A stretch of DNA of 64,000 bases from Microcystaceae cyanobacterium (GCA_041746575.1 JBGTGT010000120.1:11339-75338), one strand, 5' to 3'. Shown: positions 58,803 through 64,000, numbered from the stretch's first letter. The notes: generated from the letters alone by a model not told the origin. A program made the numbers and translations.

Positions 58803-59016
58803 TATATTTTAAGTTATAAATTGCATTGATTAAAGTTATCCTATCACTGAGTAAAGACCAAAATCAATCTTTCCTGACTTTCTCTAAAATATTTAGTTAA
58901 TACTGTTTCTTTTTCTCCTTGATGAAAAATATCTAAATTAGTTTTTTTCTAAGATTGTGCCTCACGTTCGTACTTATGGTTGATGAATCTTTTGAGGATA
59001 AAGTTTAATTTTATTA

Positions 59017-59376
59017 TTACTTGATAATTAATAGAACTTTTTCTCTTGTAAGAATTGTTGGCACATAGCGACTTCTTTTTGCTCGTACTGCATCAATCTG
59101 TAAATTTAATTCTTGTTTGAAAACTTCTTTATACAGAAATAAAATAGCACTTAAAGCCTGATTTTGAGTGGAAGCGGCAACATTTTCCGCAACAGCCAAG
59201 TGAGTTAAGAATTCTTCAACTTCTTTTCCACCCATTTCTCGTGGATGGCGTTTATTATGTAATAGGATATAGCGTTTAATCCAATTAATGTAACTTTTTT
59301 CCGTTTTATAAGAGTAATGCTTCACACGAATGACATCACGGACTTGTTCAAGGAGCTTTTTGGGGGGTTTATCCAT
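59017..59376 (-). pseudogene. intI: Truncated integron integrase (N-terminal SAM-like domain only)
   Basis: LLEQVRDVIRVKHYSYKTEKSY...HPREMG..EVEEFLTHLAV...VAASTQNQALSAILFLY...RAKR...P.ILT is the IntI N-terminus; ends in TAATAATAA before the catalytic domain. Confidence 0.9.
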
Positions 59377-59387
59377 CGGGGGATATT

Positions 59388-59552
59388 CAGAATGTTTCTG
59401 GATAATATGACTATTGGGTATGTTATCCCGAAAGTTTCTAGCTATCATCAGGGATTGTGCGGAATATTTCTGGATAATATCCTCTACAGGGGGATTAGAC
59501 GGAAAGTGTCAGCTTTTTGTCCCATAGGGGTTGACTATCCAGAAAATGTCGG
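59388..59552. repeat. Five phased 13-bp quasi-palindromes upstream of attI
   Basis: CAGAATGTTTCTG (59388), CCGAAAGTTTCTA (59428), CGGAATATTTCTG (59460), CGGAAAGTGTCAG (59500), CAGAAAATGTCGG (59540). Confidence 0.6.
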
Positions 59553-59558
59553 TATAAT
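59531..59558 (+). promoter_or_regulatory. Candidate cassette promoter Pc
   Basis: TTGACT-16 bp-TATAAT pointing into the cassette array. Confidence 0.65.
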
Positions 59559-59570
59559 AAATAGTTAGCA
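59552..59570 (+). mobile_element. Integron attI core site
   Basis: GTATAAT-AAATA-GTTAGCA (L box, 5-bp spacer, R box); GTTAGCAGTC is the exact reverse complement of GACTGCTAAC at the end of cassette 1. Confidence 0.75.
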
Positions 59571-59687
59571 GTCTAGAAGACTCCGTTAACTCAGTGCTTA
59601 AGCGGCTTTGATCCATTAGTCATGGACATCACGGAAATCAAGTATAATAGAGCGTCCTTATGGTGATCGCTCCAAACCTCAGCCAGC

Positions 59688-60332
59688 ATGAATGTTTTTG
59701 ATCGTTCTGACCATGTTTATGTCTCTCCCGACCTTGACGAGGTTATAAAAGACACAATACGGTTTTTTAATGGCACACCTGTACATTCAATTCCCACTCC
59801 AGAGCGTTTTCATGGTACGGGCGTATATGCTCTCTACTGCATTGCCAAATCTGGAATTTATTCAAAGTTTCATTTGGTGAATAGAACTGAATTTCGTATG
59901 CCAATTTATGTTGGAAAGGCTGTTCCAAAAGGATGGCGACAATCTAGGCTATTATCCTCTGTAGACACTAAGGTTTATGAGCTAAACAATCGAATCAAAG
60001 AACATAGCCGCAGCATTGACATTGGAGACGGCTTGAATAGCTCAGATTTTTTCTGCCGTTTTATGATTCTTGAGGGAAAAGAAAGCGATTTGATAGGCAC
60101 TGTCGAAGCAGCCCTAATCCGAAAGTACAGACCAATTTGGAATACTTTGATTGATGGCTTTGGTAATCATGATCCTGGAAAGGGTAGGTACGAGCAAGCA
60201 AAGTCAGATTGGGATGTCTGTCATCCAGGACGCACTTGGGCAGAAAAGTGTCAGGGAGTACCCGCAAACAAAGAAATCCTTTTCCAAAGTATTGAAGAGT
60301 TTTTGAGCAATTTAAATGAAGAAAATTCCTGA
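59688..60332 (+). CDS. Eco29kI-family GIY-YIG type II restriction endonuclease
   Basis: GVYALY...PIYVGKA GIY-YIG motif; WNTLIDGFGNHDPGKGR and WDVCHPGRTWA. Confidence 0.88.
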   Translation: MNVFDRSDHVYVSPDLDEVIKDTIRFFNGTPVHSIPTPERFHGTGVYALYCIAKSGIYSKFHLVNRTEFRMPIYVGKAVPKGWRQSRLLSSVDTKVYELNNRIKEHSRSIDIGDGLNSSDFFCRFMILEGKESDLIGTVEAALIRKYRPIWNTLIDGFGNHDPGKGRYEQAKSDWDVCHPGRTWAEKCQGVPANKEILFQSIEEFLSNLNEENS

Positions 60333-61476
60333 AATATCTTGCTTGGAGCTATTTGCTGGTGCTGGTGGATTAGCAAAAGGGCTAGAACTCTCTGGAATTA
60401 AGCACAAAGCTTTAATCGAATGGAATAAGGATGCCTGTCAAACACTGATAAATAACTATAGCAATAAGCTTGTTCATAATATAGATATTCGCTCATTCCA
60501 GTTTGATCAGTTTGGTCATATTGACATGGTTTCAGGAGGCCCTCCTTGTCAACCATTTTCAATGGGGGGAAAGCACAAAGGAAATATGGATCAGCGAGAT
60601 ATGTTCCCTTATGCTTGCAAGGCTATCAGCACTTATACGCCAAAAATTTTCATTCTTGAGAATGTCAAAGGTCTCTTACGAAAATCATTTAATAATTACT
60701 TTGAGTACATTATTCTAAGATTAACTTATCCTGATATTCAGTCCAAGACTTCAGAAGACTGGGAAGATCATCTAAGAAGACTTGAGAAAATTCACACATC
60801 TGGAAAATTCGATTCCATTAAATATAATGTAATTTTTCGGCTAGTAGACGCAGCAAATTATGGTATTCCACAGCGCCGTGAACGTGTTTTTATTGTCGGT
60901 ATAAGAAAAGACTTAAATATAAAGTGGGCGTTTCCAAAAGAAACGCACTCTTTAGATTCATTGCTATGGTCGCAATTTGTTAGCTGTGATTATTGGGAAC
61001 GGCATAAGATCAAGCCTTCAGCCATTGAACACCTAGATGCAAGGAATCAGCAAAGAGTTCATCAACTGATTCAACAACCTACTTTATTTGCGCCATCTTT
61101 GGAGCCTTGGAAAACAGTGAGAGATCAAATTGGGGATCTCCCAGAACCTGATTTTGAAGGTAGTTTTGACAGTGAGCATGTTCTCAGAGAGGGTGCAAAA
61201 GCATACCCTGGACACACTGGCAGTTATATTGACATGCCTTCTAAAGCACTGAAAGCAGGAGATCACGGAGTTCCTGGAGGAGAAAATATGATTCGATATC
61301 CAGACGGTCAAGTTCGCTACTACACAACCTTTGAAGCTAAACGAATCCAGACTTTCCCAGATGATTATAAAATTTGGGGTTCATGGACAGAAGCAATGAG
61401 GCAGATTGGCAATGCTGTACCCGTAGAACTAAGTCACCATATAGCGAGTTCCTTAGCGCGAACAGTCTGTGTGTAA
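60316..61476 (+). CDS. C5 cytosine DNA methyltransferase, cognate to the endonuclease
   Basis: LFAGAGG, GGPPCQPFS, ENVKG, QRRER, QIGNAVP; overlaps the REase by 17 nt. Confidence 0.95.
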   Translation: MKKIPEISCLELFAGAGGLAKGLELSGIKHKALIEWNKDACQTLINNYSNKLVHNIDIRSFQFDQFGHIDMVSGGPPCQPFSMGGKHKGNMDQRDMFPYACKAISTYTPKIFILENVKGLLRKSFNNYFEYIILRLTYPDIQSKTSEDWEDHLRRLEKIHTSGKFDSIKYNVIFRLVDAANYGIPQRRERVFIVGIRKDLNIKWAFPKETHSLDSLLWSQFVSCDYWERHKIKPSAIEHLDARNQQRVHQLIQQPTLFAPSLEPWKTVRDQIGDLPEPDFEGSFDSEHVLREGAKAYPGHTGSYIDMPSKALKAGDHGVPGGENMIRYPDGQVRYYTTFEAKRIQTFPDDYKIWGSWTEAMRQIGNAVPVELSHHIASSLARTVCV

Positions 61477-61480
61477 CGAC

Positions 61481-61500
61481 TGCTAACGGGGTCGTTGGGC
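61481..61500 (+). mobile_element. Collapsed attC (R''-6 bp-R') between cassettes 1 and 2
   Basis: TGCTAAC-GGGGTC-GTTGGGC; both halves match their partner cassette ends. Confidence 0.7.
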
Positions 61501-61579
61501 GGCAGTTGTGGTATAGTATAGCTTGTGTTATTGAGTGAGAAACCATTCTCAAAAGCATTGTTCAGGGAGAACACTCTGT

Positions 61580-62035
61580 ATGTCCAAGTTCGACCTCGAA
61601 GTAACGCTGCGCGAGATTACTAAGGAAAACTGGCGTGATATCCTCCGCTTAAAAGTAGCCCCACACCAAGAGCAGTTCGTGGCATCCAACGCCGCGTCTA
61701 TCGCAGAAGCGCACTTCAATCCAGAGGTTGCTTGGTTCCGCGCGATCTACGCTGGTGACGTGCCAGTCGGTTTTTTAATGTTGGAAGACGACGTAGCTCA
61801 GCAAGAGTACTTTCTGTGGCGCTTTATGATAGGTGAGCAATACCAGGGGCGTGGGTACGGGCGAAAGGCGCTGGAGTTGTTCTTCGCACACGTCAAGACG
61901 CGCCCTGGAGCAGATGCGGTCGAAACAAGCTGTGTGCCAGCCAAAGGTGGTCCCGGCCCGTTCTACGAGAAGATGGGTTTTGTTTACACCGGAAAAGAAG
62001 AGGACGGCGAACTTGTGATGCGACGTGAATTGTGA
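61580..62035 (+). CDS. GNAT acetyltransferase (spermidine/spermine acetyltransferase-like), cassette 2
   Basis: LWRFMIGEQYQGRGYG and FYEKMGF; visibly more GC-rich than the host genes. Confidence 0.88.
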   Translation: MSKFDLEVTLREITKENWRDILRLKVAPHQEQFVASNAASIAEAHFNPEVAWFRAIYAGDVPVGFLMLEDDVAQQEYFLWRFMIGEQYQGRGYGRKALELFFAHVKTRPGADAVETSCVPAKGGPGPFYEKMGFVYTGKEEDGELVMRREL

Positions 62036-62063
62036 TCTAGAAATGGTAGGTGGGTAGCGATCC

Positions 62064-62151
62064 GCCCAACAATTCAAATGCAGGCGGACGATCGAAAGCC
62101 GCTGGTTCTGAGTTCGAGGTTATTTGCCGCCGCTGATTTGAGCCGTTATGC
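62064..62151 (+). mobile_element. Full-length attC site (88 bp)
   Basis: R'' GCCCAAC; TCAAATGCAGGCGG pairs with CCGCTGATTTGA with extrahelical bases; R' GTTATGC. Confidence 0.88.
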
Positions 62152-62206
62152 CTCCACTTTTCAATTTAAATAAATTATCAAATGCTGCATTTAAAGAATA
62201 TAACCT

Positions 62207-62566
62207 ATGCCAACCATCACAACTTATAGTTGTCCAAACTGCAAGCGACAATTTTGCAGAGGATTGAATATGCCTAACTATGGACCTCCGGTTATTCGTT
62301 GTGCTCAATATAGTTCCTTGGTAAAGACAGGGTGGCATAAGCGTGTAAATATGTGGGATAAAATCCAAGCTTGCTTACCTATAATTGTTGGTTTGGGGTG
62401 GCTCATATTCATCTTCACAAGGAAGGAGGGCGATGTCATGCCGAAATTCTTGGTTGGCGCTATCGGTTTTCTGATCGGACTTTTTGGGGGATGGTCTCGC
62501 TTTAGATTAATAAAAAAATACGAGAATTCAGTGGAAGCAAATTCGGATGATATTCCTACTTGGTAG
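62207..62566 (+). CDS. Hypothetical 2-TM protein with an N-terminal CxxC, cassette 3
   Basis: CPNC motif and two hydrophobic helices; first ORF after the attC. Confidence 0.65.
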   Translation: MPTITTYSCPNCKRQFCRGLNMPNYGPPVIRCAQYSSLVKTGWHKRVNMWDKIQACLPIIVGLGWLIFIFTRKEGDVMPKFLVGAIGFLIGLFGGWSRFRLIKKYENSVEANSDDIPTW

Positions 62567-62616
62567 TGCGATCGCTTATCATTTTAGGTAAACAGCAACA
62601 TTACTCCTATACTCCT

Positions 62617-62949
62617 ATGACATTAGCCTCCATCCCAACAAAGCAGTATATCGAGCAACGAGACAAAGAATATTGGATTGAAGGAACTCGTATCTCCCTT
62701 GATTCAGTTGTCTATTCTTTCTTGAACGGAGAATCGCCCGAAAGCATTGCCCAAAATTTTCCACTCCTTTCACTCGAACAGGTTTATGGCGCGATTGCTT
62801 TCTATCTTGCCAATCGAGAGCTTGTGGATGTGTATCTGAAAAAGGGTGAAGCCGAGTTTCAGCAACTACAACAGTCTTGTAGAGAAAAGAGCCCTTTGCT
62901 GTACCAAAAATTAAAGGCGGCTCAAGCCCAGAAGCAGAAAGCAGCATGA
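62617..62949 (+). CDS. DUF433 family putative antitoxin
   Basis: IEGTRISLDSVV...GESPESIAQNFPLLSLEQVYGAIAFY. Confidence 0.88.
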   Translation: MTLASIPTKQYIEQRDKEYWIEGTRISLDSVVYSFLNGESPESIAQNFPLLSLEQVYGAIAFYLANRELVDVYLKKGEAEFQQLQQSCREKSPLLYQKLKAAQAQKQKAA

Positions 62950-63299
62950 CAGAAATTCGCTTTCAAGCTGATGCCGATCTCAGACAGGCAATTGTGACTG
63001 GCGCAATCCGCAGACAACCAAATCTGGATTTTCAGTCAGCTAATGAAGCAGGGCTTGAAGGAATAAAAGATCCAGAAGTTTTAACCATTGCAGCATGGGA
63101 TGGTAGGGTGCTGGTCACGCACGATCGCAAAACTATGCCGACTGCGTTTGGTCAATTCATCATTTCGCAAACGAGTTCTGGTGTTCTAATTCTTTCTCAG
63201 AATCTTCCAATCAGCGAAGCGATCAATGCAATTATCTTAGTGTGGGAAGCATCTACGGCTGAGGAATGGATCAATCAGATTATGACTTTTCCATTTTGA
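62946..63299 (+). CDS. DUF5615 PIN-like putative toxin
   Basis: RFQADADL, DPEVL, RVLVTHD; ATGA overlap with the DUF433 gene. Confidence 0.85.
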   Translation: MTEIRFQADADLRQAIVTGAIRRQPNLDFQSANEAGLEGIKDPEVLTIAAWDGRVLVTHDRKTMPTAFGQFIISQTSSGVLILSQNLPISEAINAIILVWEASTAEEWINQIMTFPF

Positions 63300-63341
63300 A
63301 TGGCTATACAAGATTTGCTATTGAAATCCTCGGGAAATTCT

Positions 63342-63358
63342 GCATAACAACGTTAGAC
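63342..63358 (+). mobile_element. Collapsed attC (R''-3 bp-R') between cassettes 3 and 4
   Basis: GCATAAC-AAC-GTTAGAC; GCATAAC is the reverse complement of GTTATGC, which opens cassette 3. Confidence 0.65.
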
Positions 63359-63414
63359 AGCACATATCTCTACAAAAGTCGTTCCTGATCTAATGAAAAA
63401 AAGGTAATCAATTG

Positions 63415-63843
63415 ATGTCAAAGCTTATAACCAAGCTACTGTTCTCAGTTGGTGCCGTAGCGTTAATTATGATTCGCAAAATCCAACCTAATTTGTTACC
63501 AGCCGATGCCGTCACTCTTGGTCTGCTTGTTGTTGCAGTTCTGCCCTAGATTCCTTCTTTTATCGACATCGCTGAGTTTCCAGGGGGTTGGAAATTTCAA
63601 TGCAGAAAATTGGAAGCTACACAGGAGAGGCAGAATCGTGAAATCGAAAGCTTAAAATTTCTTATTAAGTATTTTGTTACTGATCGTGAGCTAGAACACC
63701 TCCAAAAATTGACAGGCAATGTGCCATCTTCCTAGGATTACGATGATTATCAAAGAGGGATTTTTGCCACGGAACTGCGGCGTTTACGCTCGTTTGACCT
63801 CATTCAGATGCAACCTAATAAATCTGACGGGGTGACAAGATAA
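63415..63843 (+). pseudogene. Cassette 4 membrane-protein pseudogene
   Basis: MSKLITKLLFSVGAVALI...VAVLP*IPSFIDIAEFPGGWKF...SS*DY...ELRRLRSFDLI; two in-frame TAG at 63547 and 63733. Confidence 0.7.
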
Positions 63844-63859
63844 GCTAAAAAGTCGATTG

Positions 63860-64000
63860 TAAGTATTTAGGCAAAATTGATTACATATTTAGTTCCAAAA
63901 TCTTTTAAGATTTGTTCGACAGCATAAACCAAGCTTGTCCAATCTTGATAGGCATCGACATCTAACCATTGATACTTCATAAATCGCCAAAGAATTTCAA
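63860..64000 (-). mobile_element. IS630-family element, right end and transposase C-terminus (partial)
   Basis: EILWRFMKYQWLDVDAYQDWTSLVYAVEQILKDFGTKYVINFA* (stop 63867-63869), then a TA at 63860-63861. Confidence 0.8.

Follow-up and report, generated by a model that had tools for sequence, protein, structure and literature searches.

Recurrent collapsed attC sites at cassette junctions of a cyanobacterial integron array, a derived form of truncated attC

Two junctions between gene cassettes in an integron array of a Microcystaceae cyanobacterium, here called J1 and J3, measure only 20 and 17 bp, and the L boxes, stem and extrahelical bases of attC are gone from both. As judged from alignments to homologous cassettes, they are real and derived, and belong to the known class of deletion-truncated attC sites. 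The new element is a 20-bp form that recurs elsewhere in cyanobacteria, is exact in register and polar, and is linked to toxin-antitoxin (TA) cassettes. The favoured origin, held with reasonable confidence, is hairpin-stimulated slippage at AAC repeats, which would leave junctions that are likely inactive.

The cassette array and its integrase

The window is a 64-kb stretch of DNA (G000:C120:11339-75338), and its end is also the end of the contig; positions are counted from its first letter, and features are on the plus strand unless stated otherwise. A direct read of the sequence recovered every motif quoted in the first-pass annotation of this DNA and bore out each of its coordinates. Beside the array lies a truncated integron integrase of 143 aa (59017–59448, minus strand; TIGR02249, PF13495), with an N-terminal SAM-like domain only. 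The profile search matches positions 1–111 of the 315 in TIGR02249, below the cut-off, and the catalytic half is gone. The locus matches that of an intact 321-aa integrase on another contig of the genome, C126, at 90.5% over 547 bp. The arrangement of a complete integron, with an intact intI beside attI and the array, is absent here, the intact intI being that of C126. The putative attI simple site (59552–59570) consists of an L-box-like GTATAAT, a 5-nt spacer and a crossover at G59564/TT. The crossover is set by the paralogous copies on C126 and C80, which diverge just past GTT; in a metagenome contig (L117), cassette 1 begins at the same point but is there preceded by a full attC. The L box of cyanobacterial attI is often GTCTAAT or GCCTAAT, one base off the R'' box, followed by 5 nt and GTT, as read from L027, L028, L274, L289, L361 and positions 59552–59566 of the window.

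Cassette 1 opens with the R' sequence GTTAGCAGTC (59564–59573), which matches GACTGCTAAC at its end (61478–61487), and carries a restriction-modification (R-M) pair, an Eco29kI-family restriction endonuclease (59688–60332; PF09517, E 8.5e-68) and a C5 cytosine DNA methyltransferase (60316–61476; PF00145, TIGR00675). Cassette 2 (61494–62144) opens with GTTGGGCGG (61494–61502), whose partner is CCGCCCAAC (62062–62070), and encodes a GNAT acetyltransferase (61580–62035; PF00583). It is followed by a full attC of 88 bp (62064–62151), found by covariance model on the bottom strand, which folds with the R and L boxes paired; the folding energy was not better than that of shuffles (z 0.23), and energy alone was dropped as evidence. 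Cassette 3 holds a 119-aa ORF of no known family (62207–62566; no Pfam or NCBIfam match) and a pair of genes (62617–63299) for DUF433 (62617–62949; PF04255) and DUF5615 (62946–63299; PF18480), which we take to be a TA-like module. Downstream of J3 only short interrupted ORFs remain, broken by stop codons, in the remnant of a cassette 4 (63352–64000); a repeat, presumably IS630-like, lies where the contig ends, with a rise in depth and contig breaks from ~63850. An Rfam scan of 59000–64000 gave a single, uninformative chance match.

The same genome contains a second integron (C126:386-8920, minus-strand array) with the intact intI and one full attC near the contig start. Its first cassette is another R-M pair, with an attC that lacks the 5' half (R'' and then 20 nt of the 3' arm), and its second keeps R'' with no attC. 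Further integron debris consists of an attI region without intI (C80:43116-43300), a short attI-like fragment (C35:15173-15207) and a lone attC 3' half (C73:39588-39672). In a sample of the phylum, a near-full intI was seen in only 24 of 401 genomes, with few candidates scored per genome, which, beside the attC sites in 102 of 150 genomes surveyed in the order (see below), suggests that cyanobacteria carry many integrase-less arrays.

The short junctions and their full-length counterparts

J1 (61481–61500) is composed of R'' TGCTAAC, the 3' spacer GGGGTC (61488–61493, between the end of cassette 1 and the start of cassette 2) and R' GTTGGGC. In L117 the same R-M cassette, matching at 95.8% over 1,924 bp and exactly from 59564 to 61487, ends in a full 88-bp attC, and J1 is therefore a derived deletion. 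As GGGGTC occurs naturally between L' and R', where it follows GGTGAAC as L' in five of six full sites, the joint can be placed at the AAC of L': in the formation of J1, the AAC of R'' would have been fused with the terminal AAC of L', so that ~68 bp were lost and the 6 nt between L' and R' stayed. The right arm of the L117 attC differs from J1 (GGTGATG-GGCAAC), so that either the right arm was swapped beforehand or J1 joined two different attC sites; right arms vary among the attC sites of GNAT cassettes. Both flanking coding regions, for the methyltransferase and the GNAT protein, are intact. The GNAT cassette has the same start sequence in many cyanobacteria, where what precedes it is a full attC, an attI or a damaged site. 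At L014:3913 and L057:3918 its start is preceded by neither attC nor attI sequence, as would fit insertion at secondary sites of the genome. Neither the viral contigs nor any relative's locus examined yielded the exact J1 junction, a plasmid search returned the GNAT cassette without J1, and the R-M endonuclease had no match among 400 other genomes.

J3 (63342–63358) is composed of R'' GCATAAC (63342–63348), AAC (63349–63351) and R' GTTAGAC (63352–63358). It too is a derived deletion, because L199 and L202 carry the same TA-module end with a full attC, ending GGCAAC-GTT and GGGAAC-GTT respectively. The AAC after R'' appears to have been joined to the AAC before R', with the loss of ~70 bp. The closest parent ends GGGCAAC-GTT and the parent family often starts AAC-AACG, so the repeat may have been up to 5 nt (AAC/CAACG), although L199 itself has CACG there. 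The full parents of the R-M cassette and of the TA-cassette end have attC sites of 87–88 bp.

Cassette 3 is composite: alignments to homologs of the TA module begin at 62535, 62547 and 62568, and the last codons of the 119-aa ORF fall in sequence common to those homologs, while most of this ORF has no match among 400 genomes. From these alignments, a second fusion with no trace of attC is placed near 62535–62568, inside the cassette. A HIP1 site at 62568, the only one in the array, lies at this fusion (62535–62575), and in L199 another ORF precedes the same TA module. The 7-bp match of GTTATGC to GCATAAC, previously taken to pair the ends of cassette 3, is poor evidence, since no cassette start is commoner than GTTATGC (48 of 283) and the cassette is composite; its 3' end is nonetheless a true cassette end, given the homologs with full attC. 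The proposed search for the same cassettes with full attC thus succeeds with L117 for the R-M cassette and with L199 and L202 for the TA-module end, and supports the earlier reading of the short sites as precise hairpin deletions. The R-M, GNAT and TA genes are cassettes, as had been supposed, with homologs in attC arrays elsewhere.

A covariance model (R1), built from 37 full cyanobacterial attC sites, gives 84.7 bits for the full attC of the array (E 2e-18), 10.2 for J1 (E 0.41 in 10 kb) and 7.7 for J3 (E 1.5). A chance match reaches 10.0 bits, level with J1 and J3, and a genome-scale search reported neither at E ≤ 1. IntegronFinder retains attC sites with E < 1 (PMC4889954). The prediction that covariance models would probably miss such sites is upheld. 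The further claim that arrays would be under-called holds for individual junctions, which are missed, but not for the array, which its full attC and the intI remnant still reveal.

Recurrence, polarity and cargo in other cyanobacteria

Cyanobacterial attC sites are mostly 84–89 bp long, in the order R'', 5 nt, L'', loop, L', 6 nt and R', and R1 matched in 102 of 150 genomes of the order. The survey set comprises 354 loci (3.24 Mb) with 283 full attC sites after removal of duplicate loci, collected around attC-model matches, intI/attI matches, and GNAT, R-M and TA homologs; it is a non-random sample, in which the model matches used come from the best 150 of 580. The suggestion that short junctions be sought in other cyanobacteria proved fruitful, as 14 curated collapsed sites lie outside the window, against the 283 full ones. 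Eleven keep a 3' spacer of 6–7 nt: TTCACC in L126, L142 (R' mutated) and L305; ACGACC in L241 and L245; TTTGCC in L241; and the TAGACC type in L251, L361 (two), L222 and L216. L241 and L249 have 0-nt sites, and L353 has a 1-nt site whose parent ends GCGACC-GTT. Those in L142, L222, L245 and one in L361 were found by eye or by motif follow-up. L241 (G007:C77:9000-16801) has three collapsed junctions (0 nt, TTTGCC and ACGACC), two full sites and a partial one. In L361 (7890–9330; G474:C58), three successive cassettes have nearly the same start, and two of the three follow collapsed TAGACC-type junctions behind TA-like pairs.

A pattern search of 200 genomes gave 13 matches, equal to the 13 in the reversed control, and only matches at gene ends were counted, the others being taken as chance. 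The gene-end matches added collapsed sites in L394, L401 and possibly L395. Three full parents with GCTCAAC-TAGACC also emerged, one of them on the PIN cassette family of the collapsed L216 site. Many candidates were discarded. A 0-nt site in L121 lies inside a methyltransferase reading frame. Sites in L051, L235, L240, L042, L219, L237, L304, L327, L348, L335, L315, L303, L034, L076 and L356 (two sites) were set aside as chance matches or other remnants, and those in L061, L363, L371 and L077 (R''-L'' starts) were dropped as collapsed sites, as were the L' remnants in L031 and L200 and attI sites such as L263.

The spacer retained always lies on the same side of the site. A symmetric scan found nine distinct sites that keep the 3' spacer (1.3 expected, Markov; J1 included, L076 and L356 unvalidated), and none that keep the mirror 5' spacer (two registers, with 0.7 expected in each). 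The opportunity is similar, the needed triplet being available in 70 (3') versus 64 (5') of 266 full sites, and without the post-hoc TAGACC class the ratio is 7:0 (p ~0.01). The cargo is also skewed. Once sites found by querying with their own cassette are set aside, 12 collapsed sites remain: six stand behind TA-type genes supported by Pfam, and three more behind aspartic-protease gene pairs, which are presumably TA-like. As a baseline, 86 of the 172 ORFs that precede full attC sites were scanned, and 16 (strict) or 18 (broad) of these are of TA type; 68 full sites had no ORF by the rule used. The enrichment of TA genes behind collapsed sites has Fisher p values of 0.025 (strict) and 0.0004 (broad), which overstate the case as related genomes are not independent. 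Most simply, the TA/R-M excess is likely to reflect survivorship, with self-maintaining cassettes persisting as attC decays.

Origin of the short junctions and relation to known sites

According to the favoured explanation, an ordinary 87–88 bp attC loses its interior to a deletion whose ends lie in short direct repeats that contain AAC and belong to the site itself; the likely cause is slippage as replication passes the folded hairpin. Slippage at the attC stem-loop is cited as an origin of fused cassettes (PMC8876359, section 2.4.4; bioRxiv 10.1101/2022.09.11.507474). The retained spacers fit such repeats: ACGACC is preceded by L' GCTGAAC, and TAGACC by GCTCAAC, in three of three full sites each, and TTCACC follows an AAC-ending L' in nine of 13, while only 55 of 215 full sites overall have an L' ending in AAC. 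Products that are off the boxes also exist, namely J3 (3 nt) and L353 (1 nt). When deletions at microhomologies of ≥3 nt are simulated in 94 full sites, the products form peaks at 0, 3 and 6 nt of spacer (13%, 10% and 12.5% of products), the classes that are seen. Larger internal or end deletions of attC are also common, a further point for slippage. The simulation also predicts spacers of 9 and 10 nt (11% and 13.5%) and 5'-spacer products (6% + 5%), and none of these was validated among the surveyed loci. Also counting against slippage are the TTTGCC site of L241 (no full site listed with this spacer has an L' ending in AAC), the 9:0 polarity despite similar opportunity, and the prior swap of the right arm that the J1 spacer would need.

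On this reading, J1 and J3 are likely no longer sites of cassette excision, and the neighbouring cassettes are likely fused. The R-M and GNAT genes would form one fused cassette, whose only predicted way out is the full attC at 62064, with the IntI of C126, which is intact, acting in trans, and cassette 3 would be fused to what follows. A truncated GES-1 attC gave no circle in one report (PMC4670013). Short does not mean inert, since short ΔattI-11 junctions are reported to be excised by IntI1 at 4% and 28% (PMC12901181).

A possible, though distinctly less probable, alternative is that the 20-bp class is made by the integrase in a top-strand event between R'' and L', analogous to that proposed for ΔattI-11 sites. 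IntI would cleave the folded top strand twice, at AA/C in R'' and at the matching position in L', and joining within one attC, or between two sites of the array, would give exactly R''-N6-R'. For J3 and the 0–1 nt forms, slippage or secondary sites would have to be invoked all the same. Both cleavage points are on the top strand, and the 9:0 polarity of the 3' spacer is expected if the extrahelical base blocks bottom-strand cleavage at L''. The TTTGCC case has no AAC homology, and the J1 spacer is unlike that of its parent, as an event between sites would give. Recombination at the attC L box is reported only on top-strand delivery (PMC4792948), and an R'' × L-box origin has been proposed for ΔattI1-11 (PMC12901181). 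At L097:330-1120 (G040:C104), a cassette is inverted in attI and joined at its R'' end; it looks like a natural top-strand recombination product in a cyanobacterium, and is a further point for the integrase. However, L-box events made up one of 607 recombinants (PMC4792948), the off-box J3 and L353 show an integrase-independent route, and an AAC-ending L' is favoured by both models and does not separate them. Slippage could also be polar where the top strand serves as the lagging template, as it does in most sedentary integrons (25 of 30; PMC5371416). The wider claim, that cyanobacterial IntI itself repeatedly makes a 20-bp 'ΔattC' by top-strand R'' × L' recombination, and so locks TA and R-M cassettes in place or shifts them to a low-rate double-stranded route, is more doubtful still.

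Simple sites of attI or dif type had been offered as the alternative to hairpin deletion. It is improbable that the short sites are working double-stranded sites of this kind that still let cassettes in or out by the classical tyrosine-recombinase route. Simple sites of tyrosine recombinases have two inverted arms around an overlap of 6–8 bp, for which a 3-nt spacer is too short. By this general rule J3, with arms only 3 nt apart and 5 bp between cleavage points, falls outside the range. J1, with 8 bp between cleavage points and two inverted consensus arms around 6 nt, has a workable geometry and resembles a cyanobacterial attI read like GTCTAAT-N5-GTT; continued use is possible for J1 only. 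Cassettes at ΔattI-11 sites are reported to be mobile (PMC12901181), and the TAGACC form stands behind different cassettes in at least four genomes. This recurrence is explained by repeated formation, as full TAGACC-type parents exist; for the same reason, TAGACC was rejected as an attI-derived or self-propagating site. J1 itself gives no sign of use: its absence from viral contigs and from the relatives' loci examined was noted above, no alternative joints appear in four sequencing runs, the adjacent intI is broken, and a 7-bp core alone is reported to give no precise recombination (PMC3518468).

Assembly and chance were also checked. In each of four runs, contigs cross both J1 and J3 without a single differing letter. 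All four belong to one study, two of them may have supplied the reads for this assembly, and rare variants are lost from contigs. The only alternative joint (59567 to 62127) is from a paralogous locus, and was rejected as an array rearrangement as its variant letters are those of the C126 paralog. The pattern R''-N0–8-R', defined after the sites were known, occurs twice on the plus strand of the 64 kb, both times in the 4-kb array, with 0.75 per 64 kb expected from 100 Markov shuffles; these served as controls in place of the opposite strand, since the pattern is its own reverse complement. Although the motifs are short and GTTATGC is common, it is scarcely credible that the junctions are chance matches or mis-assembled hairpin DNA, the artefact that the first-pass annotation had allowed for, as homologous cassettes begin and end at identical bases, the runs agree, and the same forms recur in unrelated genomes.

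The earlier surprise at such short sites is not supported, as attC truncation and cassette fusion form a class already in the literature. In the scheme of Partridge et al. 2009, which PMC12901181 summarises, type i comprises fused cassettes in which a deletion has truncated the attC; blaGES-1/aacA4 is an example (PMC4670013; see also PMC8876359, section 2.4.4). In the alignments to L117, L199 and L202 the original R'' is recognisable and the rest is deleted, as in type i. J1 and J3 share with that type the kept R'', the lost hairpin, the full-site versions elsewhere and, at J1, two kept reading frames, and there too slippage or illegitimate integrase action has been proposed as the origin. They differ in lying in sedentary cyanobacterial arrays, and in that the endpoints recur on the R''/L' register, keep the attC 3' spacer and are enriched behind TA/R-M genes. 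ΔattI-type junctions (ΔattI1-11 and ΔattI2-11, with blaOXA-10 and aadA10; PMC12901181) likewise combine R'', a short spacer and GTT in simple-site geometry, and an R'' × L-box origin is proposed for them in the same source, but their spacer comes from attI (5 nt) and not from the attC L'-R' spacer (6 nt). Assignment of J1 and J3 to this type was rejected, the local attI spacer being AAATA, as against GGGGTC (attC L'-R') and AAC (attC ends). With canonical attC they share R''/R' boxes with AAC/GTT crossover triplets at the cassette boundary, but they were rejected as such, having no L''/L' boxes, stem, extrahelical bases or terminal structure and measuring 20 and 17 bp, compared with 57–141 bp in canonical sites (PMC12901181). 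Like attG and secondary IntI targets (bioRxiv 10.1101/2022.09.11.507474), a short GWT-containing double-stranded site could accept cassettes; J1 and J3 differ from these in their descent from attC and in their place at genuine cassette ends rather than at unrelated positions in the genome. Titles and abstract openings in the literature covered, which excludes most subscription papers, hold no R''-L' collapsed class or cyanobacterial example.

Integron biology still asks how cassettes drop out of the mobile pool and are fixed in place, and a recurrent, register-exact and polar product offers a testable signature by which slippage could be told from rare integrase L-box mis-cuts. Counts based on attC miss some cassette boundaries, mostly behind TA cassettes (14 versus 283, in a non-random sample), and inventories of the defence and addiction genes that cassettes carry would be biased as a result. 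Should the collapsed sites be only scars of decay, their practical value is a small annotation rule; if the cyanobacterial IntI does make the ΔattC form, they would represent a built-in pathway of cassette domestication, invisible to attC models.
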